A stretch of DNA of 64,000 nt, taken from positions 1,173-65,172 of the forward strand of contig CBDHFM010000018.1 in assembly GCA_965262505.1 (NCBI GenBank), in the 5' to 3' direction. The translations under genes and the position numbers were made by a program. Below the pieces are notes generated by a model. It saw nothing but the letters and a program-made list of their open reading frames with translations, did not search any database and was not told where the DNA came from. Shown here one piece after another: positions 3,298 to 38,307 of this stretch. Position 1 is the first letter of the stretch. Each line of letters begins with the position of its first letter. Source of the stretch: Vicinamibacterales bacterium. Its GTDB lineage: Bacteria; Acidobacteriota; Vicinamibacteria; Vicinamibacterales; UBA2999.

Positions 3298-3468
3298 ATT
3301 TCCACAAAACCCTGTGATATGAGAGGTTTTTCCACGGGTAAACAGGAAGAGTTCACCCCTAAAAGTATCGGGTAAACGGGAAGAGTTCACTCCTAAAAGT
3401 ATCGGGTAAACGGGAAGAGCGTACAAGTAGTACTGATCAAGTAGTACGTACCTCCAAGTACGTACAGG
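3298..3468 (-). promoter_or_regulatory. Iteron origin-like module 1
   Basis: 34-bp repeat gggtaaac(g/a)ggaagagttcac(t/c)cctaaaagtatc at 3336, 3370 and 3404 (partial). Two TTTCCAC boxes 30 bp apart (3298-3306, 3328-3335). GTAC-rich block at 3420-3468. Confidence 0.75.
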
Positions 3469-3820
3469 CCGGTGGCCTGTTTATCGTTTGGTTCTTAAAG
3501 GGCTGAAAAAGGCTCGACCCGCCCGTCTGTTGGCGGGGTCAATGAGGGGACGAGCTGCGACCAGGCCTGATTTCCTCATAAAACAGCCGACCGGGTGTTC
3601 CCAGTACAGCAACAGCCATGAGTAATCTGAAGCAATTGGCCTCCCTTTTGGCGAGGCGTAACGCCATCGACGAAAAGATTGCGGCTCTGATCAACCATCC
3701 AGCCCTCAGAGGTCCTATCGGGGAGTGGATCGCCCAGGAAATATTTAAGGTGACGTCCTGCGCCCTAGGGTTTTCTTGGACACTTGATTGCGAGAGAGTT
3801 CTCGCAGGAGGAGTGTCGAG

Positions 3821-4180
3821 ATGAGGAAGCACGTTGAGGAATCGGTGGCGACCGGCGTGGCCGCCGGGCGCGGCCGTGGGGGTCGGTTCTCGGCCGGGCG
3901 CAAGCGTGAGGTAGTGCTGCGTCTGTTGCGCGGGGAGGACCTCGAGTCCGTGTCGCGGGCGGTGGGGATCACGGCGGCGCGGGCGGCGCACTGGCGGGCT
4001 CAGTTTCTGGCTGCGGGGCAGGCGGGCCGAAAGAGCCGCGCACCGGATGCTCGGGACGACGACCATCGTCGGCTGCAGGCCAAGATCGGCGAGCTGCTGA
4101 TGGAGACCGAGTTACTGTACGCGAAGGTGGACCAGCTGGAGGCCGGCGGCCCTTTGGCCCGGCGGAGGTCGACGCGATGA
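3821..4180 (+). CDS. IS transposase OrfA (HTH)
   Basis: RFSAGRKREVVLRLLRGEDLESVSR; RBS aggaggag; ATGA overlap with orfB. Confidence 0.85.
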   Translation: MRKHVEESVATGVAAGRGRGGRFSAGRKREVVLRLLRGEDLESVSRAVGITAARAAHWRAQFLAAGQAGRKSRAPDARDDDHRRLQAKIGELLMETELLYAKVDQLEAGGPLARRRSTR

Positions 4181-5070
4181 GTGGCGCCCAGTCGATCTCC
4201 ACCCGTCGGGCGTATGGCGTGCAGCGGGTCTGCCGCGTGTGGCACCGCGCCCGCTCCAGTGTGTATGCGCGGCGGCAGGCGACCCGGTCTCCTGCACGGT
4301 GTCGTCGCCGCGGGCCGATCGGCGCGGCCCCGGACGACGTCCTGGTGGCCCACCTTCGCCGGGTGCTCGAAGCCGCGCCGTTTCATGGCGAGGGCTACCG
4401 CACAGCCTGGGCGAAGCGGCGGGTCGCGGGGATGCGCACCTCGAAGGAGCGGGTGCGCCGGTTGATGCGCGAGCACGACCTCCAAGCCCCGCCGCGCGCG
4501 GGCCACGCGCATGGGCCGACGGCGCACGACGGGACCATCACCCCCGAGGCGCCCGACGTGATGTGGGGCACAGACATGACGGCCACCGTGACGGTCGCCG
4601 AGGGGGCGGCCTTCGTCTTCGTGGCCGTCGATCACTGCGCGACCGCATGCATCGGGCTCCATGCCGCCAAGCGCGGGACCCGCTTCGAGGCCCTGGAGCC
4701 GATCCGCCAGGGCCTCCGCGAACGCTTCGGGGGCATCGGCGACGGCGTGGCCCGTGGGCTGCGGCTGCGTCACGACCACGGGTCGAACGACTTGGCCGAC
4801 GATTTTCAACAGGCGGTCGCGTGCTTCGGCATCGAAAGCTCCCCGAGCTTCGTGCGGGAGCCCGAAGGCAACGGCGTCGCGGAGCGCTTCATCCGCACGC
4901 TGAAGGAGAATCTGTTGTGGGTGCGGAGCTTCGAGACGATCGAGGAGCTCCGCCTGGCCGTGCTCGAGTTCAAGCGGACGTACAACGAGCAGTGGATGCT
5001 GGAGAAGTACGACTACCGAAGCCCGGCCCAGGTGCGACGCGACCTCCTCGGGCTGGACGCGGCGGCGTAG
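4177..5070 (+). CDS. IS transposase OrfB (rve DDE)
   Basis: WGTDMT...VDH...HDHGS...GNGVAERFIRTLKE...YNEQ. Confidence 0.9.
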   Translation: MSGAQSISTRRAYGVQRVCRVWHRARSSVYARRQATRSPARCRRRGPIGAAPDDVLVAHLRRVLEAAPFHGEGYRTAWAKRRVAGMRTSKERVRRLMREHDLQAPPRAGHAHGPTAHDGTITPEAPDVMWGTDMTATVTVAEGAAFVFVAVDHCATACIGLHAAKRGTRFEALEPIRQGLRERFGGIGDGVARGLRLRHDHGSNDLADDFQQAVACFGIESSPSFVREPEGNGVAERFIRTLKENLLWVRSFETIEELRLAVLEFKRTYNEQWMLEKYDYRSPAQVRRDLLGLDAAA

Positions 5071-5953
5071 AAGCGAATACCGTCAAACCACTGTCCAAGA
5101 ACCCTGAGGCGGTACAGACGCTGGCAAAATCCGCGATTCAGAAGGGCTTCGACGGCCGGGTTACATACGGTCCGCTGGCCGGACAGACGGTGAATGTGAA
5201 GTGGTACGGCAAGCGCGAGGGGCTGCTCGACATCAATCCAGCCAGCGTCCCGGACAACTACCTCGTGCTGACCGGGCCGAAGGCGGAGGCGACGACCTCA
5301 AAAGGCCAGACCCGGCCGTTGGTGATCACAGAGGTGTTCCTGTTCGATGCGTCGCCGCTGGTGGATCGGTTCAAGGTGCAGAAACGCAGACTTGGCGTCG
5401 CCGCCTACGTGCGGCAACACGAGTGGGAGGAGGCGAGAGTCTATCCGAAGGCGGCGCTCGGCGCACGAATGACGCTAACCGATGCGCAGCGAGAGGCGTT
5501 GAAGCTGTTCGCTGAGCCGAAGCGAAGCAGCTCCCACCCACATCAAAACAGCCCCGGATAGCCTCCGCACGCCAAACGCATCCACGGCTGTGCCGTCCTT
5601 CGCTTGTCTGTTTACGATTAGTGAGAAATGGGCCTTGAGTTGGCCCCGCCCAGCGGTGCCATGGTAAGACGCCGCCGGGTGAGCGGTGGTCGGACCGTGT
5701 CCTCCACAGGGCGCCGGCCCCGGTGGACTGGCGTTACTGGTCGGCCGGTCTGGTGGCAAGGGTCGCGAGGGCGTTCAAGGACCTCCCCACACACGTGACG
5801 CCGACAGCATCGAGGACGCGATTCGAGCAGGACGCTGCCAGACCGTTGTACTCATCGAATACGTGGTCCACCGCGTCAGGGTTCACCCACACGGTTTCGC
5901 GCCGTGGTCCTCGGTCATTGCCATCAGTCGTCGCATCGTTTCGTCCCTCCCTT

Positions 5954-7254: not shown

Positions 7255-7269
7255 GCCGACGACACGCCC

Positions 7270-8832: not shown

Positions 8833-9795
8833 ATGGATCATCTGACGACTGCCCGATCGGAGCCCGAGCGAGGCTCGATCTCATCCCCGACGACGGCTGA
8901 GCTAGGCTCGACCGCCCGCCGCCTGGTCCTCGCCTCTGTCAGTCCGAACACCCGCGAGAGCTACAGCCGCGCCCGCCGCCAGTTCGACACCTGGCGCGGC
9001 CATCGGCCCCTGGACGACTCGACCCTTGCCGCCTACCTGGCCGCCCTCTACGACCTTGGCCTGAGCCCGAGCGTCGCCGCCTTGGCCGTCGCCGCCGTCC
9101 GGTTTCGCGCCCGCCTGTCCGACCACCCGGACCCGGCCGGGAAAGCGACCGGCCGCGTCCTCGCAGGCTTCCGGCGCACCGCCGCCGATCGCGGCCGAGG
9201 CCGCGCCGACGCCTTTACCGCCGACCACCTTTCGGCCGTCCTTGCCACGTGCCACCGTCCGCGAAAATCCCGGCGCGGCATCGAGGCTCCGCCCGCCGCC
9301 GCCCGACGCGGCCGCCTGGACGCCGTGATCGCGGGCTTGCTCTTTATGGCCGGGTTGCGCCGATCTGAAGTAGCGGCGCTGCGCTGGTCCGACGTGACCG
9401 ACGCCGACGCCCCAACCCCCGGTATCCTTGTCCGCGTCCGAACCTCAAAAACGAACCCGACCGGTGAGACAACCGATCTCCGGTACGTCAAGAACGGTGT
9501 GGCAGCCGCCCTCCGCTCGCTCCGGGCCGAGACGCAGCCCGAGACGAGCGATCGCGTGGTGCCGCTCACCCCGCGCTCCCTCGCACGGCGCTTTATCGCC
9601 GCCGCCGAGGCCGCAGGCATCGACCACCGCATCACGGCCCACTCCGGCCGCATCGGTCTCGCCTCCGAACTCACCCGCCGTGGCGCATCCACCACGGATG
9701 TGATGCTGGCCGGAAACTGGCGCACCGCCCGCATGGTCGCCCACTATTCGGCCGGAGCCACCGCCGAACATGGCGCGGTCGCCCGTTACCTTTAA
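8833..9795 (+). CDS. Tyrosine recombinase, Cre-like
   Basis: Catalytic residues in GLRRSE, SKT, HSGRIG, GNW and MVAHY. The C-terminus resembles Cre (HSARVG...AGGW...VMNY). Confidence 0.85.
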   Translation: MDHLTTARSEPERGSISSPTTAELGSTARRLVLASVSPNTRESYSRARRQFDTWRGHRPLDDSTLAAYLAALYDLGLSPSVAALAVAAVRFRARLSDHPDPAGKATGRVLAGFRRTAADRGRGRADAFTADHLSAVLATCHRPRKSRRGIEAPPAAARRGRLDAVIAGLLFMAGLRRSEVAALRWSDVTDADAPTPGILVRVRTSKTNPTGETTDLRYVKNGVAAALRSLRAETQPETSDRVVPLTPRSLARRFIAAAEAAGIDHRITAHSGRIGLASELTRRGASTTDVMLAGNWRTARMVAHYSAGATAEHGAVARYL

Positions 9796-9810
9796 CGGCT
9801 CGTCGCCCGC

Positions 9811-10083
9811 GCCCCACCACGGCCAGGGCCGCCCAGGCCCAGGTCGAACCCGTCACCCACGGCCGAGCGCCCACGCCACCGGCCGCTCCCCCCTTCCTCA
9901 CGGCCGAGCCCTCCGGCGAACGGTCGCACGAGTGCCCCACCACGGCCAGGGCCGCCCCGGCCCAGGTCGAACCCGTCACCCACGGCCGAGCGCCCACGCC
10001 ACCGGCCGCTCCCCCCTTCCTCACGGCCGAGCCCTCCGGCGAACGGCCGCACGAGCGCCCTACCACGGCCAGGACCGCCCGGC
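9811..10083. repeat. 123-bp tandem repeat (x2.2) built of ~41-bp subunits
   Basis: Units start at 9811, 9934 and 10057. CACGGCC cores at 9818, 9858, 9899, 9941, 9981, 10022 and 10064. Confidence 0.9.
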
Positions 10084-10173
10084 CGCAGACCTCCCCACGC
10101 CCGCGCCCCCAGGTTTCGCCCGTCGCTCGTCCTGTCGTAAACGACCATCAACAATGCGGCTTGCCGCTAGTAC

Positions 10174-10335
10174 TTGTACGTACGTGGTACTTGAGTACGT
10201 ACTTGTTTAATGAAGTTGTGGGTTTTCAGCGAGCCAAAGGCGGTCAAGTTGTGGGTTTTCAGCGAGCCGAAGCGAAATGAAGTTGTGGGTTTTCAGCGTG
10301 GAAAACCACCCTGATTCACGTCCTTCTGTGGAAAA
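10174..10335 (+). promoter_or_regulatory. Iteron origin-like module 2
   Basis: GTAC block 10174-10207; aagttgtgggttttcagcg at 10213, 10246 and 10280; GTGGAAAA boxes at 10298 and 10328. Confidence 0.75.
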
Positions 10336-10930
10336 CGGCCCGGCCGGTAAGAGCCCTCTACTGCCGTGATCGAGCCGTTGTCAAGGCCGGAGTCCCGCGT
10401 TAGCGGGAGCAGAGCGTCAGCGGAGCGCCTTGACTGCGGAGAGTCGCGGCGCAGCTTTTCCCCCCGGCCGGGCCGTGTCAACAATTGTTGTCCGGCACCG
10501 TTTCACCCCTCCCGCGAGTGCGACCGGCGCACCCGCTCCGCCGTCCCGCGCGGCCTCGACCGCCAGCCCTCCCACGTCGGAACCCCAGGAGCTTCCCGCC
10601 GCGACGCTCGACACCATCCGCCACCACGAGTACCACCCATCCGCCCGCCGCTCGACTCCCCCGCCGCCAGAGCAGAAGCACGAACACCACCTCGAGCCTT
10701 GCCGTCTCTACCCGTCGCCTGATACTTTCGCGCCCTCCGAACATCACGGGCCGTGCGGTTCCGCTCATCTTCCCCGCTTGCCGCGCCGGGCCCCTGGTTG
10801 CATCGGCGCACGTGCCGCGTGCCAAGCCGCTTATGCTGGCCTCCGGCCCTTGTCACGGCCCCCGCGTATCCGACGCTGCCCGGTCCCGGCGCGGCTGCGC
10901 TGTCCCTCACGTCAGGGTTTCGCCGGTCCG
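10298..10930 (+). repeat. Long conserved, apparently non-coding module (copy of 38270-38900)
   Basis: Collinear similarity with 38270-38900 and amino-acid changes in all frames inspected. Confidence 0.8.
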
Positions 10931-10982
10931 CTTCGACTTGTGAAAGCGGAACCGGCAACCCTGAACTCAGGAGGAAACAACG

Positions 10983-11252
10983 ATGACCGAAACCACGAAC
11001 AAGCCCGTTGACGAAGTTCGGATCGGCCGCGTCAAAGCGACCATCTGGCGCAACCTCACCGACGATGGCAAGCCCCGGTACAATGTGGTGTTTGCTCGCC
11101 TCTACAAAGACGGCGATACCTGGGCGTCAAGCCCGAGTTTCGGGCGGAATGACCTGCTGGTACTCGCCAAGGTGGCCGACCTCGCGCATACCCGCGTCCT
11201 ACAGCTTCCCCAGGGGTCCAACGGCGAGGACAACGGCACGGCGGCCGAGTAA
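10983..11252 (+). CDS. Small putative ssDNA-binding (PC4-like) protein
   Basis: RIGRVKATIWRN...YNVVFARLYKDGDTW...SFGRNDLLVLAKVADLAH; strong RBS (caggagg). The fold assignment is inference. Confidence 0.6.
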   Translation: MTETTNKPVDEVRIGRVKATIWRNLTDDGKPRYNVVFARLYKDGDTWASSPSFGRNDLLVLAKVADLAHTRVLQLPQGSNGEDNGTAAE

Positions 11253-15448: not shown

Positions 15449-17284
15449 GTGAGGAAAATCGACGGCGACGCGAAGAGTATCCGCAACATGCTGGGCGGCT
15501 CCAAGTTCGCCATCGACTACTACCAGCGCGAGTACCGCTGGGAGACCAAGCAGGTCGCCGAGCTAATCAAGGACCTCGCCGAGAAGTTCCTCGAGAGCCA
15601 CGAAGCGGGTAATGAGCGCGGCGCCGTCGCGCAGTACGGGCACTACTTCCTAGGCTCCATCATCATCAGCGACAAGAATGGGCAGAAGTTCATCATCGAC
15701 GGCCAACAGCGCCTGACGTCGACGACTCTGCTGTTGATCCACATCCACCGCCAGCTCGAGAACCAGCAGCAGAAGGCGCAACTCGCCGACCTCATCTTCT
15801 CCCAGAAGTTCGGCACGCGTTCCTTCAACCTCGCCGTCCCTGAGCGCACACCCTGCATGGACGCACTTTTCACCGGGGAACCCTTCGACGACACCGGCCA
15901 GCCGGAGTCGGTGGTGAACATCCTCGCGCGCTTCCAGGACATTGAGGAAGACTTTCCCGACGAACTGGCGGGCGAGGCCCTGCCGTACTTCGCGGACTGG
16001 CTGATCGAGAACGTCCACTTCATCGAGATCACGGCCTATTCGGATGCGGATGCCTACACGATCTTCGAGACGATGAACGACCGGGGCCTGTCCCTGACCC
16101 CAACCGACATGCTGAAGGGCTACCTGCTCAATAACATCACCGACGTCGATCGCCGCAACGAGGCCAGCCGCGTGTGGCGAGACCGCGTGGCGAGGCTCCA
16201 ACAACTAGGGAAGGAGGAGGACGCCGATACCGTCAAGGCCTGGCTTCGCAGCCAGCACGCCCAGACCATCCGCGAGCGCAAGCGCGGCGCTCAGCCACGC
16301 GACTTCGACCTCATCGGCACCGAGTTCCACCGCTGGGTGCGCGACCACGAGAAGCCCCTTGGCCTCACCGCGAGCCCAGCCTTCGGGCGCTTCATCCAGG
16401 AAGACTTCGACTTCTACAGCCGCTGGTACGAGCGCATCTGGCAGGCGGCCGAGACCCTCACCCCCAGGCTCGAGGCCATCCACTACAACGCCCAGAACAA
16501 GTTCACGCTCCAGTACCCCGTGCTCCTCGCGCCGCTCCGGCGAGCCGATAGCGACGACCAGATCCATCGCAAGCTGCGGATCGTCGCCGGCTACCTTGAC
16601 ATCCTGATCGCCCGACGGATCTGGAACTGGAAGGCTACTAACTACTCCACCTTGCAGTACGCCATGTTCCAGCTGGTCATCCTGGCAATCCGCGGCAAGT
16701 CTGTTCCCGAGCTGGCCGACATCCTCATCAAGCGTCTCGACGCCGAGGATCACTCCTTCGCCAGCAATGAACGCTTCCACCTGCACGGGATGAACGGCCG
16801 ACAGATCCACCGCCTGTTAGCCCGCATAACGGACTACGTCGAGGCAAGTTCCGGCCAAGCGTCCCGCTATGCCGAGTACATCCAGCGACGCGGCAAGAAT
16901 GGCTACGAGGTTGAGCACATCTGGGCGAACCACCCCGAGCGTCACACCGATGAGTTCGCACACCCCAGCGACTTCGCCGAGTACCGTAACCGCGTCGGCG
17001 GGCTCCTGCTCCTGCCCAAGAGTTTCAACGCCAGCTACGGTGACACACCCTACGCCGAGAAGCGCGAGCACTACTTCGGCCAGAACCTGCTCGCCCAGAG
17101 CCTCCACGAGACCGCCTATGACCACAACCCGGGCTTCCGCAAGTTCCGCGAGGAGTCGGGCCTGCGCTTCCAGTCGCACGCCGAATTCAAGAAGGCGGAC
17201 CTCGACGCGCGGCAGGAGTTGTATCGCGAGATCGCCGAGCAGATCTGGAGCCCGGACACGCTTCGGCGGGAGGTGGATGCATGA
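15449..17284 (+). CDS. GmrSD-type (DUF262 + DUF1524 HNH) nuclease
   Basis: IDYYQREYRW, DGQQRLT, FETMNDRGLSL, EHIW and GGLLLLPKSFNASYG. Confidence 0.88.
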   Translation: MRKIDGDAKSIRNMLGGSKFAIDYYQREYRWETKQVAELIKDLAEKFLESHEAGNERGAVAQYGHYFLGSIIISDKNGQKFIIDGQQRLTSTTLLLIHIHRQLENQQQKAQLADLIFSQKFGTRSFNLAVPERTPCMDALFTGEPFDDTGQPESVVNILARFQDIEEDFPDELAGEALPYFADWLIENVHFIEITAYSDADAYTIFETMNDRGLSLTPTDMLKGYLLNNITDVDRRNEASRVWRDRVARLQQLGKEEDADTVKAWLRSQHAQTIRERKRGAQPRDFDLIGTEFHRWVRDHEKPLGLTASPAFGRFIQEDFDFYSRWYERIWQAAETLTPRLEAIHYNAQNKFTLQYPVLLAPLRRADSDDQIHRKLRIVAGYLDILIARRIWNWKATNYSTLQYAMFQLVILAIRGKSVPELADILIKRLDAEDHSFASNERFHLHGMNGRQIHRLLARITDYVEASSGQASRYAEYIQRRGKNGYEVEHIWANHPERHTDEFAHPSDFAEYRNRVGGLLLLPKSFNASYGDTPYAEKREHYFGQNLLAQSLHETAYDHNPGFRKFREESGLRFQSHAEFKKADLDARQELYREIAEQIWSPDTLRREVDA

Positions 17285-17610: not shown

Positions 17611-20388
17611 GTGGACGTTCATCGTCACGGGACCAAAGACGAGACGACTCGCGAAGCAGAAATGAATGGGCCGCACAACATGGACATTCTTCCCTTCTGG
17701 GGAAAGGCCCGACCTCGCAATCCCGACCGCGGGCCGAAGTGGCATCCGTTGGTATTTCACTCCCTTGATGTGGCCGCCGTGGGGGAATATTTACTGGCAC
17801 GGCATCGCGGGTTGGACGAGGGACTCAGTCGCTTGCTGGGGCTTCCGCGTGAGGACGCTGCCCCGCTAATCTGTTTCTTGCTCTGTCTCCACGACATCGG
17901 CAAGTTTGCCAGGAAGTTTCAAGCCAAGGCGCCGGAGTGGTACCCGACGTGCTTTGGCGACGACCCCGCCAACCTGGCGGCCCATTACGATCATGGCGGC
18001 GGGGGGTTCCGCCTGTTCGAAGCCGAATCCGACCGCTTCAACCTGCCGGCCGGATCCGGCGTTTGGCGGCCCCTGATCTCAGCGGTCACCGGCCACCATG
18101 GGACGCCGCCGGAACCACGCATCAATGAAAGCCTGACCACGCTGCGAAGCGACTTCGGGCGGGTGGGAATTGAAGCTGCGCACCAATTTATCCAACAGGC
18201 GCATGGGCTGTTCGCTCCGCCGGAAGACCTTCCGGCGCTTGATTGCCGGCGGGCGCGTCGCGCGTCGTTCGCCGTCGCCGGCGTTGCCGTGCTGGCGGAC
18301 TGGATCGGATCGAAGGAGGAGTGGTTTCCCTATCGTGATCCGGTTCAAGACATTGAGGCGTATTGGAACGATGCGCGAGAACGAGCGAAACATGCAGTCA
18401 CGGAGGCAGGCGTACTGCCCGCAGATGTGAGACGTCACCTCGGCTACGGCGAGTTGATCGATCCCCGAGCCGTGCCGAGCCCGATGCAGGATTGGGCGCG
18501 GAAGGTGCAGCTCCCGTCCGGCCCGGCGCTGTTCATGATTGAGGACGAGACTGGGAGCGGCAAGACGGAAGCGGCGCTGATGCTCGCTCATCGACTGATG
18601 GCTTCCGGTTCGGCGGATGGCCTCTACGTGGCGCTGCCCACCATGGCCACGGCCAACGCCATGTTTGACCGGCTCGCGGTTGCGCACCGCCGTCTCTTCG
18701 CACAAGACGCCGAGCCGTCTATCGCCCTGGCGCACGGCGCGCGCGCCATGCACGAAGGCTTTCGGGCAGCGATGTCGCGCGGCTGGCGATTCGAAGCGCC
18801 CTATTCCAATGCGCGGGGACCGGAAGAAGCCTCCGAAACCACCGCATCGGCTGCCTGCGCGGCCTGGATCGCCGACGACCGGCGGCGATCTTTTCTGGCC
18901 GATGCGGGTGCCGGCACCGTCGATCAAGCGCTGTTGTCAGTGCTGCCGAGCCGTTACCAGTCGCTACGGCTCCTGGGTCTCATGCGGCGTGTGCTCATTC
19001 TCGACGAGGTGCACGCCTACGACGCCTATATGCAGCGCGAGATGGAGCGGTTGCTCGAGTTCCAGGCGGGGCTCGGCGGCTCGGTGATCCTGCTGTCCGC
19101 GACGCTGCCGCTGTCCGTCCGCAAGCGGCTGACCGACGCCTTCGCCAAAGGGCTGGGAAGGGATGTCGGCCCGGCCAGCCCTGGCATGGATTACCCCCTG
19201 GCCACGGTTTGCGCGACTGACATTGATTCATCCACGAAGGTAGCGGGGCGAGCCGGGCGGGCGCGCACGCTTCCGATGCGATTCCTCCGCTCTTCGGACG
19301 AGGCGTTGGACGAAGTCGAAAAGGCAGCCAGCGCTGGCAACGCTGTCCTCTACATTCGCAATACTGTCGACGACGCGTTCAACGCCCACGCGGTCCTGAA
19401 GGCCCGCGGACTCGCGCCCCGTCTCTTCCATGCCCGATTTGCACTGCATGACCGCTTGAAGATTGAAGGGCAGGTTGTGGAGAGGTTCGGCAAGCGCAGT
19501 GTTACCACCGGTCGCACAGGCCAGGTGCTGATCGCGACGCAGGTGGTCGAGCAGTCGCTCGATCTCGATTTCGATGTCCTGATCACCGACCTCGCCCCTA
19601 TCGATCTGCTGATCCAGCGCGCAGGAAGGCTCTGGCGCCACGACCGCCCGGAACGCGAAGGCCACCCGGAACTGCTCGTGGTGGGCCCCGAACCCGTCGT
19701 CGATGCGGACGAGCGATGGTTCGACCGAGCCTTTCCGCGTGCGAAATACGTCTATCGGGATCACGCACGTCTCTGGCTGACTGCTCGGGCGCTGGAGGAT
19801 GCCGGCGCCATCGAGAGTCCCGTGGGCTTGCGGGCGCTCATCGAATCCGTCTATGGAGATGATGTCGAGGCGCGCCTCCCGGATGCCTTGCAGGGCAGCT
19901 TCTTCGACGCCGAGGGCCGGGCGGGCGCAGAGCGCGGCGTTGCAACGACAAACGTGCTCAACCTTACCAAGGGCTACGTGCGAGACGGCGGCGCCTGGGA
20001 CAGCGACGTTCGAACACCAACCCGGCTCGACGACGATCCACAGGTTACGCTGCGGCTCGGTCGCGTCCGCGATGGCCGTATCGAGCCCTACGCCCCCGGC
20101 GAGGCGACGGACGAGCCATGGCGGCCGTGGCGGCTCAGCGAGGTGAATATTGCAGCGCGGCACGTTGGGGGCGAGGCCGTGCCGACGGAGCACGTCGAGG
20201 CCGCGCGAGCGGCGAAGGCAGACTGGACGCGGTTCGACGCGGAAAAGATCCTCGTCGTGCTCGACAAGGCCGCTACGGCTGGCACATCCTTGTCTGGATC
20301 GGCGGCGGCGGCGGGCGAGGCTCCGAACGAGGTCCTCCTGAGCTACGATCCGCAAGGGGGCTTGACGTGGAAGCGGAGCAAGGCGTGA
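17611..20388 (+). CDS. cas3: Cas3 HD nuclease-helicase
   Basis: HSLDV, LHDIGK, ADWIGS, ETGSGKTE, DEVH, QVVEQSLD and QRAGR. The true start may be a downstream ATG. Confidence 0.95.
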   Translation: MDVHRHGTKDETTREAEMNGPHNMDILPFWGKARPRNPDRGPKWHPLVFHSLDVAAVGEYLLARHRGLDEGLSRLLGLPREDAAPLICFLLCLHDIGKFARKFQAKAPEWYPTCFGDDPANLAAHYDHGGGGFRLFEAESDRFNLPAGSGVWRPLISAVTGHHGTPPEPRINESLTTLRSDFGRVGIEAAHQFIQQAHGLFAPPEDLPALDCRRARRASFAVAGVAVLADWIGSKEEWFPYRDPVQDIEAYWNDARERAKHAVTEAGVLPADVRRHLGYGELIDPRAVPSPMQDWARKVQLPSGPALFMIEDETGSGKTEAALMLAHRLMASGSADGLYVALPTMATANAMFDRLAVAHRRLFAQDAEPSIALAHGARAMHEGFRAAMSRGWRFEAPYSNARGPEEASETTASAACAAWIADDRRRSFLADAGAGTVDQALLSVLPSRYQSLRLLGLMRRVLILDEVHAYDAYMQREMERLLEFQAGLGGSVILLSATLPLSVRKRLTDAFAKGLGRDVGPASPGMDYPLATVCATDIDSSTKVAGRAGRARTLPMRFLRSSDEALDEVEKAASAGNAVLYIRNTVDDAFNAHAVLKARGLAPRLFHARFALHDRLKIEGQVVERFGKRSVTTGRTGQVLIATQVVEQSLDLDFDVLITDLAPIDLLIQRAGRLWRHDRPEREGHPELLVVGPEPVVDADERWFDRAFPRAKYVYRDHARLWLTARALEDAGAIESPVGLRALIESVYGDDVEARLPDALQGSFFDAEGRAGAERGVATTNVLNLTKGYVRDGGAWDSDVRTPTRLDDDPQVTLRLGRVRDGRIEPYAPGEATDEPWRPWRLSEVNIAARHVGGEAVPTEHVEAARAAKADWTRFDAEKILVVLDKAATAGTSLSGSAAAAGEAPNEVLLSYDPQGGLTWKRSKA

Positions 20389-22082
20389 CGGGTGCGATGT
20401 CAGCTAAACCGGCCCACGTCGTCTTCAACCTGATCAACGAACCGTGGCTGCCTCTGCGGCGTCGTAGCGGCACCGTCGAGCATATCCAACCGTGGCGGAT
20501 CAACGAGCGCATCAGCGAAGACCCGTTCGTCTCCTTCGCGTGGCCCCGGCCGGACTTCAACGGCGCGGCGCACGAGTTTCTTGTCGGCCTGCTGTCCACG
20601 ACCGCCGCTCCCGCGGACGACGACGAATGGAAGGACTGGTGGCTGGATCCGCCGCCGCCGGATGTCCTTGAGCCATGTTTCTCGACGGTCGCTCACGCCT
20701 TCGACCTGGACGGACCCGGACCGAGGTTTCTCCAGGACCTCGACCCGCTCGATGGCGCCGAAGACAAGGAAATTGCAGCGCTCTTGATCGACACGCCGGG
20801 CGCACAGACGCTGCGTAAGAACGCGGACCTATTCGTGAAGCGAGGCGGAGCGCCAGTATTTTCCCGCGCCGCCGCCGCGATGGCGCTCTTCACATTGAGC
20901 AACTACGCGCCTGCGGGCGGCGCCGGGCATCGCACGTCGCTGCGAGGCGGCGGCCCGATGACAACGCTGCTCGTCGCGGACCACTCCACGTACGGCAGCA
21001 CCCTCTGGGGTCGGCTGTGGCCCAACGTCGAGAGTCGGGAGCAAATCGAAGCGCGCGCGAGCGAGGCGACTCTGGACGACGATGTCGAGAGGGTATTTCC
21101 CTGGCTCGCTTCAACCCGTACCTCCAACCTGAAAGCCGGCGGCAAATCGACAACCCCCACTGACGTCCATCCCTTGCAGGTCTATTGGGGCATGCCTCGG
21201 CGCATTCGACTGCTGTTCGAAGACGCGAACGGTCGCGGATGCAGCCTCACCGCCGCGGAAGACGCCGTTGTCGTAACGAGCTATCGGACCAGGACCTACG
21301 GCGCCGACTACTCGGAAGGATTCGAACACCCGCTAACCCCCTACTACCGTCAGAAGGCAACGGCCATCGCCAAGCTTCCCGGTCACCCCAACCCAGGCGG
21401 TATCAGCTATCGCCTGTGGCCAGGGCTTGTCGTCCGGAGTAAGGACGGACTTCGCGAACCCGCGCAAGTTATCCGGCACTGGCAGCAAGAGCGGGTACGG
21501 AGTGCGAGCGAGTCCAGGTTTGCCGCCTTTGGCTATGACATGGACAACATGAAGGCACGTGCCTGGAGCGAAGGCGAGATGCCGCTCTGGTTCCTTGATG
21601 ATGAGACACGCGATTGGCTTGGTGAATTCATCCGCCGGGCAACGGCGGGTGCCAACACCGTCTCTCGCCTGGTGACGGGAGCCGTGAAATCCGCTCTTTA
21701 CGACCGGCCCAAGGACGCCAGCGGAGACTACGGGTTTATCGCCGAACGTTTCTATCGAGAGACGGAAGGAGCGTTCTACGCGGCTCTCGGCGCCGCCGTG
21801 GCTGCGATCAGGAACAATCCCGATAGCGACGACCCCACCATCGAGGCGCGCCGGCGCTGGGCGCCGATCATGGAAAAGGTGGCACTGCACCTGTTCGACG
21901 AGCACGCTCCCTCCGAAGGGTTGGAGGACCGGAAGATGCATCGCCACGTGAAGGCGCGGTTCTTGCTGACGCTCGCACTTTGCGGACGTGGAACGGCAGG
22001 TAAGTCCCTGTTTGATGGCGATCTAGGTATTGCCTCACCCGAAACCAGGCAGTCGCGGAGAGGTCCGGAGGAGGTAGCATGA
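20385..22082 (+). CDS. cas8e: Type I-E large subunit Cas8e/Cse1
   Basis: FNLINEPWLP, GGAGHRTSLRGGGP and WGMPRRIRL; GTGA overlap with cas3. Confidence 0.92.
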   Translation: MTGAMSAKPAHVVFNLINEPWLPLRRRSGTVEHIQPWRINERISEDPFVSFAWPRPDFNGAAHEFLVGLLSTTAAPADDDEWKDWWLDPPPPDVLEPCFSTVAHAFDLDGPGPRFLQDLDPLDGAEDKEIAALLIDTPGAQTLRKNADLFVKRGGAPVFSRAAAAMALFTLSNYAPAGGAGHRTSLRGGGPMTTLLVADHSTYGSTLWGRLWPNVESREQIEARASEATLDDDVERVFPWLASTRTSNLKAGGKSTTPTDVHPLQVYWGMPRRIRLLFEDANGRGCSLTAAEDAVVVTSYRTRTYGADYSEGFEHPLTPYYRQKATAIAKLPGHPNPGGISYRLWPGLVVRSKDGLREPAQVIRHWQQERVRSASESRFAAFGYDMDNMKARAWSEGEMPLWFLDDETRDWLGEFIRRATAGANTVSRLVTGAVKSALYDRPKDASGDYGFIAERFYRETEGAFYAALGAAVAAIRNNPDSDDPTIEARRRWAPIMEKVALHLFDEHAPSEGLEDRKMHRHVKARFLLTLALCGRGTAGKSLFDGDLGIASPETRQSRRGPEEVA

Positions 22083-22624
22083 CGGACTCGACACAACAGA
22101 GCGCCGCGTCGATCGCTTACGAATGGTGGCGCCGCCTGCATCCACTGAGTGTCCCGCAGTCCGGCGCCCAGCGTGCGGCGCTTGCCCGCATGCGACGGGC
22201 GGCCGCCCCGATTGATGTGATACAGGAGCCAGAAGCGCTGCGCCTTATTGCAAGGCTGCCGCGGAATCCGGACCGGGTTGCCATGCTCGCTGGAATCCTG
22301 GCATGTGTCCGCGAGTCCGACGACCGGCGCGTCGCCCGTGCCGTTGGCCGCACGACGCTTGACGATGAGCAGTCAGCCCTCATGTCCGAAGGCCGTTTCC
22401 GCCGCCTGCTTCAGGTGCAGGACGGCGAGCTCATGGAAGCCATGCGCCGGCTTGTCCGCATGACCAAAGGGACGGCCAACGTCCGTGACCTGTCTTCCGC
22501 GGTCCTCTACTGGGGCGACGGGGTGAAGAAGCGCTGGATATTCGATTACTACGGCGTTGCCGACAGCATCCGGTCGGACGCGGGCGCGTCAGTGTCGTCG
22601 GCTAGAACGCAACTCGAACAATAG
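22079..22624 (+). CDS. cse2: Type I-E small subunit Cse2/Cas11
   Basis: EWWRRL...MSEGRFRRLL...WIFDYY; operon position. Confidence 0.9.
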   Translation: MTDSTQQSAASIAYEWWRRLHPLSVPQSGAQRAALARMRRAAAPIDVIQEPEALRLIARLPRNPDRVAMLAGILACVRESDDRRVARAVGRTTLDDEQSALMSEGRFRRLLQVQDGELMEAMRRLVRMTKGTANVRDLSSAVLYWGDGVKKRWIFDYYGVADSIRSDAGASVSSARTQLEQ

Positions 22625-22634
22625 GAATCTGAGA

Positions 22635-23687
22635 ATGGCTGATTTCCTGCAACTGCATCTCCTCACTGCCTACGGTCCGTCCAATCTGAACCGCGACGAT
22701 ACCGGTCGTCCCAAGAGCGTCGTCTTCGGCGGCGTGCCTCGCTTGCGCGTGTCCTCGCAGAGCTTGAAGCGTGCCTGGCGGACGTCCGACGTCTTCAATG
22801 CGAAGCTTGACGGCCACCTCGCAGACCGCACGCAACGGCTGGGCAAGGCCGTCTTCGATCGCTTACGCAAGGGCGGCATGGAGGACGACTTGGCTCTCAA
22901 GACCGCCCGCGGCATTGCCGGCGTATTCGGCAAGATCAAGAAGGAGCAGGACAAAGATCCCACCTTCACGGAACAGCTCGTCTTTGTGTCCCCGGATGAG
23001 CAAGAGAAGGCGTTCGCGCTTGCCGACAAGGCCCTCACCGGAGAAGCCCTTGAGGACCCTCAGGCGGATGACCTACTCCAGAAGGTGGATACGGCCGCAG
23101 ACATCGCGATGTTCGGGCGCATGCTGGCCGATAATCCGAAGTTTAACCGCGAGGCGGCGGTGCAGGTTGCGCACGCCATGACGACGCATCGCGCCATTGC
23201 AGAGGACGACTACTACACTGCCGTCGACGATCTGAAGTCCCGTGAGGAGCCGGACGACGCTGGCGCCGGATTTATCGGCGTCCAGGAATTCGGCGCCGGC
23301 GTCTTCTACCTGTACGTCTGCGTTGACCGAGGGCTTCTCCTCCGAAACCTCGACAATACACAAGCCGTGCATGACGCCAGCCTGGCCGCGCTCGTCGAAG
23401 CCTCCGCGACCGTTGCGCCCGGCGGCAAGCAGGCGAGCTTCGCGAGCCTCGCCCGCGCCGTCTATGTCCTTGCCGAGAAGGGGTCCGCTCAACCGCGGAG
23501 CCTCGCTGCTGCCTTCCTTAAACCCGTCACGGGGACCAATCAGGGAGAGCACTCCATCATGGCGCTGGAGGAATATCGGGATCGGCTCGATACCGCGTAC
23601 GGCTCCTGCGCGGATGACCGGTACACGATGAATATAGAGAAAGGCGAGGGAACGTTGCACAGCTTGCTCGCCTTCGCGGTGAGCTGA
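22635..23687 (+). CDS. cas7: Cas7
   Basis: SNLNRDDTGRPK, RVSSQSLKRAWR, DIAMFGRM and DYYTAVDD. Confidence 0.95.
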   Translation: MADFLQLHLLTAYGPSNLNRDDTGRPKSVVFGGVPRLRVSSQSLKRAWRTSDVFNAKLDGHLADRTQRLGKAVFDRLRKGGMEDDLALKTARGIAGVFGKIKKEQDKDPTFTEQLVFVSPDEQEKAFALADKALTGEALEDPQADDLLQKVDTAADIAMFGRMLADNPKFNREAAVQVAHAMTTHRAIAEDDYYTAVDDLKSREEPDDAGAGFIGVQEFGAGVFYLYVCVDRGLLLRNLDNTQAVHDASLAALVEASATVAPGGKQASFASLARAVYVLAEKGSAQPRSLAAAFLKPVTGTNQGEHSIMALEEYRDRLDTAYGSCADDRYTMNIEKGEGTLHSLLAFAVS

Positions 23688-23769
23688 CCTGACCCGGCGG
23701 AGCGGGAACCAGACGCCTGTTCATGAATGGTTTCGACGTCTTGCATGAAATTTGATCGGTAATGGACTG

Positions 23770-24501
23770 ATGCGCTTTCTGTTGTTCACTCTCTATGCCC
23801 CGATGGGATCGTTCGGCGAGATAGCCGTCGGCGAACGCCGCATGAGCTGGGCGCGGCCAGGGCGCTCGGCGGTCCTTGGGCTGGTAGCCGCTGCCCAGGG
23901 GATCGAACGCGCGAATGAAGCTGCTCACCAGCGACTGGAAGCCAGCCTCTACTATGCCGTCAGAACGGACGCGCCGGGCCGGCCGCTGCTGGACTATCAC
24001 ACCGCCCAGACTCCAAAGGCCCGCAGGAGCCAAACGTTCGCAACGCGGCGGGAGGAACTGGAGCCGGACGATCTCAACACCGTGCTATCCGTCCGCGAGT
24101 GGCGGGTAGATGCCTGCTTTACGGTCGCCCTGTGGCCGCGGCCTGACCAGGCCGCAAACCTTGACGAGATCGTCGGCGCTCTGCGGTATCCTCGTTTCTT
24201 GCTCTACGTCGGGCGCAAATCTGGGCCTCTCGGCCTGCCGCTCAACGCCGAGATCATTGAAGCCGATACGTTCCTGGCGGCCTTCGACGCCCGGCAGCCG
24301 AACGACGAAGAACGCAAGATCTTGCAACGCACTTACGTTGACGGCACAGCCCGCGGCGGAATCGCGTGTGACCACGACGCACCGGGAGCGCCTGGCGAAA
24401 CCCGCCTTGAACGGCGGCGCGATGCGGTTGCCAGCCGTGCACGCTGGCAGTTTGCGGACCGACTGGAACGAGTCGTGGTCCCGGAACGCAGCGAGGCCTG
24501 A
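23770..24501 (+). CDS. cas5: Cas5e
   Basis: LYAPMGSFG, PGRSAVLGLVAAAQG, DYHT and YVGRKS. Confidence 0.93.
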   Translation: MRFLLFTLYAPMGSFGEIAVGERRMSWARPGRSAVLGLVAAAQGIERANEAAHQRLEASLYYAVRTDAPGRPLLDYHTAQTPKARRSQTFATRREELEPDDLNTVLSVREWRVDACFTVALWPRPDQAANLDEIVGALRYPRFLLYVGRKSGPLGLPLNAEIIEADTFLAAFDARQPNDEERKILQRTYVDGTARGGIACDHDAPGAPGETRLERRRDAVASRARWQFADRLERVVVPERSEA

Positions 24502-24506
24502 CAGCG

Positions 24507-25193
24507 ATGTTGTATCTCTCCCGCGCCAGCCTCAAACGCGACGCCTCCGTGGCGGCGCTCGCGCCCCTGCTGCTGGGGAAGTCTGGGAGAGGCGGCCACA
24601 CCGGGCAACCGGGGCATCATCTCGTGTGGTCTCTCTTCGCCGATGGTCCCGATCGGCAGCGTGACTTTCTCTGGCGCGAGATGGATACCGGCGTGTTCCT
24701 CATCCTGTCCGCCCGTCCGCCGGAGGATCGGCATGGACTGTTCGAAATCGCGGAACCCAAGCCGTTCACGCCAACACTCGAACCCGGAGATCCGCTGAGA
24801 TTCTCGCTGCGTGCCAATCCCGTACTCCGTCGTCGCGATCCCGCGCGCCGTCGTTCCGTCAAGCACGATGTGGTGATGGACGCGCTACGGTCCCATGCCA
24901 ACGGCGATCGTGCCGTTCATCGGCGCGCCGCCGTCTGGGAGCAGGGCCTCGCATGGCTCGAACGACAGAGCGGAAGTGCCGGGTTTGCGTTCGATCCGAA
25001 ATGTGTGCGAGTTGACGGCTACGAGCAGTTGCGCGTGTCACGTAAAGGATCGCCCGCGATGGCGTTTTCGACGCTGGAGTTCGAAGGGCTGTTGACGGTC
25101 AGTGATCCTGACGCTTTTCTGTCGGGTATCGCGCGCGGCTTCGGTGCTACCAAGGCGTATGGCTGCGGCCTGATGCTGATTCGCCGGGCGTGA
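24507..25193 (+). CDS. cas6e: Cas6e
   Basis: MLYLSR, FSLRANP and the C-terminal G-rich loop GFGATKAYGCGLM. Confidence 0.93.
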   Translation: MLYLSRASLKRDASVAALAPLLLGKSGRGGHTGQPGHHLVWSLFADGPDRQRDFLWREMDTGVFLILSARPPEDRHGLFEIAEPKPFTPTLEPGDPLRFSLRANPVLRRRDPARRRSVKHDVVMDALRSHANGDRAVHRRAAVWEQGLAWLERQSGSAGFAFDPKCVRVDGYEQLRVSRKGSPAMAFSTLEFEGLLTVSDPDAFLSGIARGFGATKAYGCGLMLIRRA

Positions 25194-25239
25194 TTGAGGG
25201 CTATGCGATGGTCCGCCGAACATTGCTCCATTACGGATT

Positions 25240-25630
25240 CAGAGGGACCGCAAGCGGAATGGGGTGACATCCTTCAGCGAATCGAGGACGGCGACAATCA
25301 ACAAACGGAGTTCAAGCGCGGCCGGGAGACCTGTCGGCCGTTGGCAGAGCGATCTGCGCGTTTACGAATGCCGCCGGAGGCGTCATCATCCTGGGAGTCG
25401 AAAAGCGTTGGTGCTCAGGAAAACGCTGAGCACGCGCACGACCGCCTGACGTCATTTCTGCACACCGGTTGCAGCACACCGGTCTCCGCTCGCACGGGAC
25501 GTCACGAAGATCCCAGTGAGTGGGTGCTTGGGTGGAAGTCCCACGCCAGCAGGGATTCGAGCCGATACGTTCCGACTGGGAAGATCGCCATTTGCTTCCC
25601 CGGACAGCGCTTCGTGACAATGTCATCTGA
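25240..25630 (+). pseudogene. Frameshifted AlbA_2/Schlafen-like domain relic inside the cas operon
   Basis: ILQRIEDGDNQQTEFKRG, then in a shifted frame LSAVGRAICAFTNAAGGVIILGVE. Confidence 0.7.
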
Positions 25631-25681
25631 CGCTGGGTACGGCCCGGAACGTGCGGCCGGTTCAACGGAGGATCGGGACTG

Positions 25682-26918
<1,237 letters not shown>

Positions 26919-27023
26919 TCGTCAGAAATCGGGCCGCGCCCCTCGGTCCAGAGACAGGCGAGCTAAACTGGTGCGCTTGGTGGCATCCAGTAACACCTTC
27001 TCAATTAAAGCGTTGTAGGAAGA
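26919..27023 (+). promoter_or_regulatory. CRISPR leader
   Basis: Lower-GC stretch between cas2 and the first repeat. Confidence 0.7.
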
Positions 27024-27235
27024 GTGTTCCCCGCGCGGGCGGGGATGAACCGCGGCGGCAGCAGAGTCTGACGATGCTCTGGACGTGTTCCCCGCGCGGA
27101 CGGGGATGAACCGTGGATTCGACCGGACAAGCGGCTCTCTATCTAGTGTTCCCCGCGCGGGCGGGGATGAACCGGCGAAGAGCGTAAGAGTTTCTGCCCC
27201 TGTTAAGTGTTCCCCGCGCGGGCGGGGATGAACCG
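27024..27235 (+). CRISPR. Type I-E array: 4 repeats, 3 spacers
   Basis: 29-bp GTGTTCCCCGCGCGGGCGGGGATGAACCG at 27024, 27085 (one G>A change), 27146 and 27207; 32-bp spacers. Confidence 0.97.
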
Positions 27236-27339
27236 GGGGCATTGATGGGTCGGCGTGGGGCGGCTCGCCGGTTCGGCGACTTCCGCCCAAGCCAGTGCTA
27301 CGCTTCCATCCGATTTGGGTTCATCACTGAGCATGATCC

Positions 27340-35630: not shown

Positions 35631-35936
35631 GCCTCAGTCTTGTTGTGATCCGCTGACAGGGCTGATCACACCCTCGTCCCGTTCCTGTCTTCATCGTCGT
35701 CCCGCTCCGTGACTTCGACTCCCATCCCGCGCCCGATCTCCGTCACGTTCGCCACCTTCTGATTCCCGTTGATTGCCGTGATCGACGCCCTCCCAACCTG
35801 AATTTATGGCACGAGTGTTGTCATCCGTTTACTGTTCTGGATCCAGTGTGGGTGTATCTTCAGTTCTGGCTCGGGACCGGCGTGGTTCGTCTCGTCGCGC
35901 GGCCTCTTTGGCGCCGCGGGCGGCAGGCGGCGGAAC

Positions 35937-36893: not shown

Positions 36894-37318
36894 GACAACT
36901 TAGCCAAGAGCGAGCGTCTTGCTGACGACGAACGGCGCACTGCGCTTGTGCGCCGTGACGGGCTCAGAGCCGGGCCTATGTTTAAAGAACAGGATGGCAC
37001 CTTACAGCAACGGACCGCTTCGGTGATAAAGCACCCCCAGGACATCCTGGTCCGTGGCATTCGCCCTCTTCTCTTTCCGCCTGCTCGCTCTGCCCACTCG
37101 AGGACCTCCAGCACATCGGCCCCAGCCGGAACGCGCGAGCGGGAGGGGCCGGCCCGCCAGCCGGAGCCGGCCTGCGATACCGCGACCGTGGGGATGTCGG
37201 ATGACCACGGTGGAGGTGACCATGCACCGTGACCATTTCGGGAATGGTACCGCGGCGGGTCACGGTAACGCGCGTGGTCGCTGCGGCGACCGCCGACGGG
37301 ACTGCCAGCCTGGCCCGT

Positions 37319-38112
37319 TCAGGCAACCTCTTCAGCCCAGCGGCCGACGGGGATCCATTCCGGCACCCTCTTCGAGCGCCACGTCCGTCCGCTCGTGATC
37401 GCCGCCCTCGCCCGGCCGCTCCCGGCACAAACGGCATCGAGGACGCACATGCGCCTCAAGGCTCCGTTGATGTCGCCGTACGCCTCGCGAAGGCGGCCGA
37501 GTTGGCCGTGGCCAATGCCGGCCACAGCGCGGCGTGCTGCACGCCCCACGTGCGGACCGCGCTCTCCGTCTCGTCCTCCGCCTGCACAAACAGGAACGTC
37601 GCCCACTCGCCGTCAAGCGCGATCGGCAGTTTGTGGGGGAATTACCGGTACTGCGCCCCGACCGCGCTCTGGTAGAGCCGGTGTGGCAACACCTGCTGCG
37701 AGATCCCCAACGCGGTCAGCGCGCTGACCTTCTCGTCCTCGGTCGGGAGCCACGCGGCGTGCGGATGTTCGAGCACGTAGTCGAGCGACAGCAGCCGCCG
37801 CAAAACAACATCCGGCGCAGCCGGCCGGCGGTGCCGGACGTGTTCGGCTCCGAGCGTCCGATAGATGCGCCGGGCCGCGATCCGGCAGATGCGGAGCCGG
37901 GAGCCGTTCCAGGGCTGTTCGACCGCGTGCTTGCGGCACCGGCGGACGAAGCGGTTGGCGAGCGCCGGATTGGTCCGGCCGATGAAGGCGAGGTAATGCG
38001 AGCGGAGGAACACGCCGCTGTGCAGGCAGACCAGCGCCAGCCACTCGGCTTCGCGACGGGTCCAGCCGACCCGCACGAGAGCGTCCGTCCGGTCCCGAAG
38101 ATGGGTGATCAC
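37319..38112 (-). pseudogene. Inactivated paralogue of the CLHSG protein at 45079-46032
   Basis: GWTRREAEWLALVCLHSG. In-frame TAA at 37642 (YR*FPHKLP versus RYFVHKLP). C-terminal ITSGRTWRSKRV lies in another frame. Confidence 0.85.
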
Positions 38113-38145
38113 CGGCCCGTAAACAATGCGGCGTACCGCTTGTAA

Positions 38146-38307
38146 TTGTACGTACGTGGTACTTGAGTACGTACTTGTTATATGGATGTGTACCTTTTCA
38201 GCGAGCAAAAGCCGGGTAATGTGTACCTTTTCAGCGAGCCAGAGCGAAATGAATGTGTACAGTTTCAGCGTGGAAAACCACCCTTATTAACCTTTTGTTG
38301 TGGAAAA
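38146..38307 (+). promoter_or_regulatory. Iteron origin-like module 3
   Basis: 34-bp GTAC block identical to 10174-10207; atgtgtac(c/a)(t/g)tttcagcg at 38186, 38219 and 38253; GTGGAAAA at 38270 and 38300. Confidence 0.75.

Follow-up and report, generated by a model that had tools for sequence, protein, structure and literature searches.

Predicted origins of a diversified iteron replicon family with RepA_C initiators on a plasmid-like contig of a Vicinamibacterales bacterium

A close known counterpart of the elements considered here is the replicon of Salmonella genomic island 1 (SGI1), which encodes a Rep protein with a RepA_C domain (S003). Deletions have shown its oriV to lie directly downstream of rep, and this oriV combines four iterons of 17 bp (RKGGGGGHRATTATGCG) with a DnaA box and an AT-rich region that holds three 8-bp repeats (PMC7433901). 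The RepA of the Xanthomonas plasmid pXAC64 belongs to the same initiator family (RepA_C, PF04796) (PMC7433901). We have studied a stretch of 64,000 nucleotides (hereafter the window) from a Vicinamibacterales bacterium (UBA2999), corresponding to positions 1,173-65,172 of the forward strand of contig CBDHFM010000018.1 in assembly GCA_965262505.1, in which a preliminary description had pointed out three origin-like modules. Judging from sequence comparisons, all three are very probably vegetative origins (oriV) of iteron-type theta replicons with a RepA_C initiator, the second and third having been orphaned. The kind of replicon (iteron-type, RepA_C) is already known; what is new is the host phylum, the divergence of the RepA, a layout of three iterons at a 33-36-bp period with two boxes, the TACTTG block and the paralogous expansion. 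It is the first time that such replicons are found as a large, diversified family in soil Acidobacteriota, and our literature search found no paper on acidobacterial plasmid origins.

The host genome (7.0 Mb) consists of one 5.4-Mb chromosome (contig C30) and 29 small contigs of 12-121 kb each, which total 1.6 Mb; the window is part of one of these, C18 (67 kb). The features of the window on which the argument turns are the following.

624-1619, plus strand: repA, replication initiator of 331 amino acids (Pfam RepA_C PF04796, E = 2e-28)
2094-2279, plus strand: remnant of another repA (C-terminal part), matching residues 274-331 of the intact RepA at 62% identity
3298-3480, minus strand: module 1, predicted complete oriV (pattern scan, iteron match to contigs C2 and C17)
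3480-3464, minus strand: hairpin of module 1
3466-3421, minus strand: TACTTG/GTAC block of module 1, putative unwinding element
3419-3336, minus strand: three iterons of module 1, CTCTTCCCGTTTACCCGATAC, at a 34-bp period (starts 3419, 3385 and 3351)
3335-3328, minus strand: proximal box of module 1, GTGGAAAA
3306-3298, minus strand: distal DnaA-type box of module 1, TGTGGAAAT
10156-10335, plus strand: module 2, predicted orphan origin (hairpin 10156-10167, TACTTG/GTAC block 10169-10207)
10213, 10246 and 10280 (starts), plus strand: iterons of module 2, AAGTTGTGGGTTTTCAGCG, in steps of 33 and 34 bp
10298-10305 and 10327-10335, plus strand: proximal box and distal box (TGTGGAAAA) of module 2
38128-38307, plus strand: module 3, predicted orphan origin (hairpin 38128-38139, TACTTG/GTAC block 38140-38179)
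38184, 38217 and 38250 (starts), plus strand: iterons of module 3, ATGTGTACCTTTTCAGCG, in steps of 33 and 33 bp, with two changes in the third copy
38270-38277 and 38299-38307, plus strand: proximal box and distal box (TGTGGAAAA) of module 3

The three modules were found where the preliminary description had placed them, and they share one architecture: a small hairpin, which we add to the earlier observation, is followed by a GTAC/TACTTG block, three repeats and two GTGGAAA boxes. The repeat period of 33-34 bp that had been reported is borne out by the start positions in all three (for module 2, TRF gives a period of 33 and 2.7 copies), and the two boxes, said to lie exactly 30 bp apart, do so in every module if one counts from start to start. 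A search of the window for GTGGAAA(A)-N22-GTGGAAA gives three occurrences, one in each module, where shuffled sequences predict 0.08. Modules 2 and 3 do share the same 34-bp GTAC block TTGTACGTACGTGGTACTTGAGTACGTACTTGTT (10174-10207 and 38146-38179), and their homology extends beyond the module proper, over some 790 bp (10150-10933 versus 38122-38906) at 83.6% identity. Read on the opposite strand, their distal box is TTTTCCACA, which fits the consensus TTWTNCACA as had been claimed; that of module 1, ATTTCCACA, has one mismatch to it.

Such modules are associated with repA genes throughout the genome. Full-length repA genes number 43 by tblastn, on nearly all small contigs and with three on the chromosome, and the genome has 45 RepA_C family matches versus 0-1 in each of 60 related genomes. 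A scan for the architecture alone returned 49 modules genome-wide, and about 43 of them lie within 2.5 kb of a repA sequence, always on its 3' side; the preliminary description would have given up its proposal had there been no association with rep genes, and this is not the case. Past the stop codon of about 35 of the 43 full-length repA genes there is a TTTCCAC box, most often at ~120-150 bp and in fixed orientation, and at the same ~35 loci a GTAC-dense block follows ~100 bp past this box. Most of the 43 repA genes have a module just past their stop codon, and the proposal that the modules are of origin type and belong to one replicon family is supported. In this genome the predicted oriV most often lies directly downstream of rep, the distance in the window being 1.7 kb; iterons next to a rep gene are found for module 1 and for ~43 of the 49 modules, not for modules 2 and 3.

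In the orientation used by the preliminary description, the genome-wide order is a hairpin AACAGGCCnnCGGCCTGT, the GTAC/TACTTG block and usually three iterons at 33-36 bp. Each iteron is built of a constant half GTTTnnnCG, in many cases followed by ATAG, and a variable half of 6-8 nt; a proximal box (A/G)TGGAAAAC is fused to the last iteron, and then come ATCACAG and the distal box TTTTGTGGAAAAC. Beyond the hairpin no consistent gene was found. The closest relatives of the RepA all come from metagenome-assembled genomes (MAGs) of Acidobacteriota, labelled Vicinamibacterales, Bryobacterales or Terriglobia, and of 41 repA loci in other Acidobacteriota MAGs, 24 show this layout downstream of the gene. 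The RepA of the window is at most 43% identical to any of its 1100 matches in PLSDB.

The likeness to SGI1 is one of initiator family and of plan: in both, rep and a terminator are directly followed by the oriV, which has only a few iterons, a DnaA box and three short repeats within an AT-rich region. It extends to the iterons themselves, as the SGI1 consensus resembles the GGGGGCGTTTATGCG iterons of Vicinamibacterales loci L029-L049 (14 of 15 positions match by our count), and in the present genome the constant half occurs as GTTTATGCG on C21 and C8. The differences are equally clear. Here three iterons are spaced at a 33-36-bp period, where SGI1 has four 17-bp direct repeats; here two boxes of the same orientation lie 30 bp apart, one of them touching the last iteron; and here the block is made of TACTTG units (in this genome also GTACGTAC) preceded by a hairpin, in a host of the phylum Acidobacteriota. 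An enterobacterial RepA_C plasmid typed as IncN by MOB-suite (CP093127.1) likewise shows repA, a terminator, a TTATCCAC box abutting the iterons and an AT-rich region, but it has eight iterons GTACATCCGACCCCC at 21-24 bp, a single box, a truly AT-rich flank and only ~30% RepA identity. Finally, the classical iteron origins (RK2 oriV/TrfA, pPS10, F ori2/RepE, R6K gamma/pi) and RctB of Vibrio chromosome 2 share the tandem winged-helix initiator, the iterons, the DnaA boxes and short repeats in the unwinding element, but differ in Pfam family.

That the iterons diversify together with the replicon family, another point of the preliminary description, is supported by the correlation between RepA identity and iteron identity, taken over 34 repA-origin pairs (r = 0.60, a value reached by none of 2000 permutations). 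RepAs that are at least 95% identical have the same iterons, and RepAs of 60-80% identity have iterons with little in common beyond the constant half; at 90% identity there are 26 RepA clusters, and the iteron types number roughly 20. One exception is instructive: the RepAs on C13 (10678-11625) and C26 (46482-47432) are more than 90% identical, with TCGGGG versus TGATGG as variable halves, and their differences are grouped in two patches, at about residues 75-100 and 271-290 in the numbering of the window RepA, which we regard as candidate determinants of iteron specificity. The differing iterons between conserved flanks thus reflect a diversified RepA/iteron specificity, and the main point of the preliminary description, an iteron replicon family that diversifies its specificity, is right. 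This diversity presumably lets many related replicons coexist; the incompatibility itself is something that we infer. A distant RepA (26% identical), encoded at C14:12994-13911 and C16:37252-38169, has an origin of its own, in which three GCGACAAAGTGCCCGTG iterons abut GTGGATAAC and an oppositely oriented TTTTCCACA box comes next; it stands for a second and deeper branch of this replicon type.

On one point we disagree with the preliminary description, which saw in the GTAC-rich block a replacement for the classical AT-rich element. Indeed, the block is itself the local AT-rich and least stable stretch of 40 bp, with a GC content of 0.40 versus ~0.66 in its flanks. When minima were sought within ±400 bp of each of 43 modules, those of GC content and of nearest-neighbour stability fell on the block in most of them, and it is for this reason that we consider the GTAC/TACTTG block to be the relatively AT-rich, predicted unwinding element of a 65%-GC replicon, and no substitute for one. 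The sequence of the block in other Acidobacteriota is CTACTTGTTCTTTAACTACTTGTTCTTTAACTACTTGT, typically with three TACTTG units; the unit conserved across the phylum is this triple repeat, and short TACTTG-type repeats are present in triplicate both here and in relatives. The number of GTAC sites varies there from 0 to 4, and the richness in GTAC is therefore lineage-specific. We also asked whether GTAC might serve for methylation or sequestration, as GATC does in the oriC of E. coli, and found no support for it: across the genome GTAC is neither depleted nor enriched (ratio 0.96), its only dense cluster on the chromosome belongs to an integrated module, no such cluster lies at dnaA, and many origins of relatives have no GTAC at all.

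As to the boxes, ATTTCCACA and two TGTGGAAAA boxes occur within 35 bp upstream of the chromosomal dnaA (C30:3113829-3113860), in what we take to be the rpmH-dnaA intergenic region, rpmH itself not having been identified. The TTTTCCACA form is found 13 times on the 5.4-Mb chromosome, and the small contigs have 52 copies in 1.6 Mb, a 13-fold higher density. The box of the plasmid origins is thus probably the host DnaA box, binding being predicted from the fit of TTTTCCACA to TTWTNCACA.

The initiator of the window has a RepA_C score of 100 bits against a cut-off of 26. It shows no sequence similarity to solved structures. Its AlphaFold model is of moderate confidence (predicted local distance difference test, pLDDT, 69.6; predicted template modelling score, pTM, 0.67), and the top match of this model in Foldseek is to domains 2-3 of RctB (E = 8e-7, probability 1.00); then come co-crystal entries that we take to be RepE54-DNA scaffolds, and a further match to a Rep WH1 domain. 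The model therefore points to the tandem winged-helix (WH1-WH2) fold of iteron initiators. The preliminary description counted a single recognisable rep gene, and there is indeed one intact repA (624-1619); to this we add the C-terminal RepA remnant, which was detected by self-blastn (1441-1603 versus 2098-2260) and by tblastn.

Module 1 is the cognate origin of this repA, as far as can be judged from comparison, because near-identical repA genes on two other contigs (98% identity on C17 and 94% on C2) are followed, 650-830 bp from their 3' ends, by the same module 1-type iterons CTCTTCCCGTTTACCCGATAC. Among the modules of the window only module 1 makes a complete replicon. The 1.7 kb that separate it from repA contain a 143-codon open reading frame (ORF), the RepA remnant, a Cys-rich ORF of 123 codons and a membrane ORF of 98 codons; an insertion or rearrangement moved module 1 to this distance, and the remnant marks the rearrangement. 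On C8, too, the 98-codon ORF has a repA remnant on one side and a module on the other.

Modules 2 and 3 are another matter. The preliminary description treated them as origins of the replicon family, and this stands in so far as their architecture is complete; it is incomplete in so far as neither has a rep gene in cis and a matching RepA was not found in the genome. They form, together with copies at C2:66722, C4:39067, C23:680 and C23:52445-52573, what we call family II. Neither tblastn nor a profile hidden Markov model (HMM) detected a repA or a RepA remnant beside module 2, and module 2 has no nucleotide similarity to PLSDB plasmids. Their iteron core TTTCAGCG is also found in repA-linked iterons on C9, C11 and C24; a full module 2 or module 3 iteron is found in no repA-linked array of the genome. 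A metagenome scan with the degenerate iteron pattern TGTNNNTTTTCAGCGAGC gave, among the matches listed, a single match per locus, which we read as chance, and no arrays, and therefore yielded no cognate repA. The copy at C23:52445-52573 has module-3-type iterons and is broken off after the second of them by what we take to be the start or a fragment of a serine-recombinase gene; C23:52445-52600 is an example of origin breakage by recombination.

What distinguishes family II is the DNA that follows the distal box, and the features concerned are these.

10336-10982, plus strand: conserved non-coding stretch of ~645 bp, of which the 3' ~450 bp are the p89 leader
10983-11252, plus strand: p89, encoding 89 amino acids and adjoining four of five family II modules
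37642-38127, minus strand: truncated copy of a gene family that we call CLHSG, oriented divergently to module 3, with its start ~20-35 bp away from the hairpin of the module
38308-38906, plus strand: copy of the p89 leader without the p89 gene, its homology to module 2 ending at about +640
39120-39725, minus strand: SNase gene (Pfam scan), past the leader of module 3
39831-41009, minus strand: ArdC gene (Pfam scan), past the SNase gene

The ~645-bp stretch is 84-98% identical among five copies, and its 3' ~450 bp are homologous to DNA upstream of p89 genes on unrelated metagenome plasmids; the stretch also has a hairpin directly before the p89 ribosome-binding site. The p89 family has 614 homologues (E <= 0.001) of 82-95 amino acids, mostly on plasmid-sized contigs, and has no Pfam domain or name. 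Family II thus looks like an origin that recombination has joined to the p89 leader, and modules 2 and 3 are orphan origins whose activity is at most predicted. Homologous exchange at the conserved block and boxes would be the simplest explanation for identical flanks with swapped iteron sets. Downstream of the C23:680 copy, the flank is 98% identical into the same region of SNase, ArdC and type IV secretion system (T4SS) genes as that of module 3.

Other identities for the stretch were considered and rejected. A profile HMM of the 43 RepAs found nothing in its six frames (best E = 1.5), which speaks against a degraded repA; 1-nt indels and the lack of codon periodicity (23:15:13) speak against coding; and there is no Rfam match at gathering score, only one chance-level match at E < 1. 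In the 60 related genomes only short, chance-level matches to it were found. A perfect 12-bp palindrome in the p89 leader reads CAACAATTGTTG at 10479-10490 and CAATAATTATTG at 38450-38461, and this symmetric change points to a site for a dimeric protein, or else to a hairpin, that is under selection. On the other side of module 2, between a tyrosine recombinase gene (8833-9795) and the hairpin, there is a 123-bp tandem repeat (9809-10084; 2.3 copies, 95% matches, 41-bp sub-period), and related repeats precede the copies on C2, C4 and C23.

How should these two modules then be understood? They might be active secondary origins fired in trans by a RepA from the pool or from an unassembled plasmid, just as the oriV of RK2 is driven by TrfA in trans. 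Their cis elements are all intact and properly spaced, the iterons are near-identical within each module, the 34-bp block is shared, and iteron differences that affect whole sets between conserved flanks suggest selection with a partner; furthermore, the C23:680 copy has its variable half, TGTGTCCC, in common with the repA-linked module C12:94000, and this half recurs in a Bryobacterales locus. We nevertheless think that this is unlikely, though worth keeping in mind, given the lack of a full iteron match to any repA-linked array in the genome and the fact that sister copies drop to two and one iterons, one being truncated.

It is distinctly improbable, in our view, that they act instead as iteron decoys or incompatibility determinants, which titrate or handcuff a RepA and thereby control copy number or keep out competing plasmids, as P1 incA, F incC and cloned iterons do. 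Extra iterons in trans are known to exert incompatibility, and here orphan arrays are carried by conjugative backbones, in a pool where related specificities number at least 20, but a target replicon with matching iterons is absent from this genome, and the full unwinding block and the DnaA boxes, superfluous for a decoy, have been kept. The orphan iteron arrays incA of P1 and incC of F control copy number or incompatibility and are not primary origins; we bring them in for their arrangement and not for any likeness of sequence. They adjoin their rep gene and have no unwinding element or DnaA boxes, and modules 2 and 3 are the reverse. A bolder idea, and one that we would call a long shot, is that complete Rep-less origins fused to the leader of an early-entry gene on conjugative plasmids are weapons or parasites. 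If so, they would titrate the RepA of a rival plasmid and cause a targeted incompatibility on arrival, or else would hijack the RepA of a resident plasmid and replicate without a rep gene of their own, and the whole-set iteron swaps between identical flanks would be the trace of an arms race by cassette exchange.

The surroundings of modules 2 and 3 could also call to mind a conjugative transfer element, either an origin of transfer (oriT) or an entry signal of the leading region. They adjoin the SNase-ArdC-T4SS operon, which is transcribed towards them, the truncated CLHSG gene, and the p89 gene, which elsewhere closes an operon of the type IV coupling protein (T4CP), VirB11 and SNase (on another plasmid, locus L086, p89 comes last after these three, on the same strand); moreover, as single-stranded DNA the block can form 8-bp hairpins (z = -2 to -3). 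All this is outweighed by the ~43 other modules in which the same architecture is tied to repA and not to T4SS or CLHSG genes. The part that is linked to transfer is the p89 leader, found without any module on other plasmids. An oriT would be expected beside its relaxase gene, and when the CLHSG family is taken as the test, only two of 26 copies have a module nearby, one of these copies being dead; we hold this explanation to be very improbable. The dead copy is the one by module 3, which aligns by tblastn to residues 1-204 of the intact 317-residue copy at 45079-46032, and the first ~27 codons of whose ORF merely read through the GTAC block. For the same reasons (a dead copy by module 3, and 24 of 26 copies without a module upstream) we rejected the CLHSG protein as the missing initiator. 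Finally, the idea that a repressor or a ParB/ParR-type protein binds the modules, as promoter/operator arrays or partition centromeres, hardly deserves consideration in spite of the direct repeats at about three helical turns, which resemble those of the parC/parH type, and of a ParA gene 2.4 kb from module 2, since the iterons co-vary with RepA, the modules come after repA stop codons and terminators and not before genes, no sigma-70-like promoter was found in module 2, and a ParA gene is near just one of the three modules.

If the modules are origins of RepA_C replicons, as we think, their working can be pictured by analogy with iteron plasmids and SGI1. RepA monomers, each with two winged-helix domains, would bind the three iterons, with the variable 6-8-nt half setting the specificity and GTTTnnnCG as the constant half. 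The host DnaA would bind both GTGGAAA(A) boxes, the proximal one touching the last iteron, and RepA and DnaA together would open the adjacent low-stability block with its three TACTTG repeats, leading to helicase loading. At modules 2 and 3, recombination would have put the leader of the conjugation-associated p89 gene on the side where repA normally is, and these modules would fire only if a matching RepA came in trans.

Several points weigh against the proposal of oriV function and should be acknowledged. Replication, binding and unwinding are all argued from sequence, and the present-day activity of module 1 is a prediction only. Module 1 sits 1.7 kb from its repA, with a repA remnant in between. 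For modules 2 and 3 there is no cognate RepA, neither in cis nor anywhere in the genome, and the iteron counts in family II (3 and 3 in the window, 2 on C2, 2 on C4, 1 at C23:680 and a truncated 2 at C23:52445-52573) shrink in a way that fits decay as well as function. The small contigs, moreover, are a mosaic pool, in which 38% of the DNA recurs, at 97% identity or more, on another contig or elsewhere on the same one; the 29 contigs may stand for plasmid variants of a population, together with assembly artefacts, and not for 29 plasmids per cell, and the idea of many replicons in one cell is therefore not established.

Self-repeats at this same level of identity make up 81% of the length of C13, 88% of C28, 35% of C16, 46% of C20 and 37% of C26, and some repA-origin units are duplicated in inverted orientation within these contigs, which may be concatemer or foldback artefacts of assembly or else real dimers. 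C18 itself is a conjugative plasmid-like element. By Pfam scan it carries, besides repA, genes for a tyrosine recombinase, ParA, GmrSD, a type I-E CRISPR-Cas system, a TonB-dependent receptor and a resolvase, as well as a T4SS set (VirB4, VirB6, VirB8-11 and the coupling protein, plus ArdC and SNase); an element at 3788-5070 we take to be of IS3 type from reading its ORFs rather than from the profile scan. The CRISPR-Cas locus (17611-27238) encodes Cas3, Cse1, Cas7, Cas5, Cas6e and Cas1, with Cse2 and Cas2 not identified, has its repeats at ~27023-27238 and adjoins the GmrSD gene (15449-17284). ARAGORN calls a 100-nt tRNA-Leu(CAA) on the minus strand at 52461-52560, across the junction of a 355-codon CagX-like ORF (51417-52484) and an 812-codon VirB4-like ATPase ORF (52536-54974), and this call is probably a false positive.

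The Acidobacteriota are among the most abundant soil bacteria and are almost without genetic tools. A defined minimal replicon (repA and an origin of ~180 bp) that recurs in MAGs of Vicinamibacterales, Bryobacterales and Terriglobia is a starting point for shuttle vectors. The 26 RepA clusters with their roughly 20 iteron types are a natural dataset for a RepA-iteron recognition code, in which the C13/C26 pair points to two candidate specificity patches, and they lend themselves to work on the splitting of incompatibility groups. From the orphan origins one sees how easily origin cassettes are shuffled by way of conserved flanks. What is most notable is the scale of the diversification.

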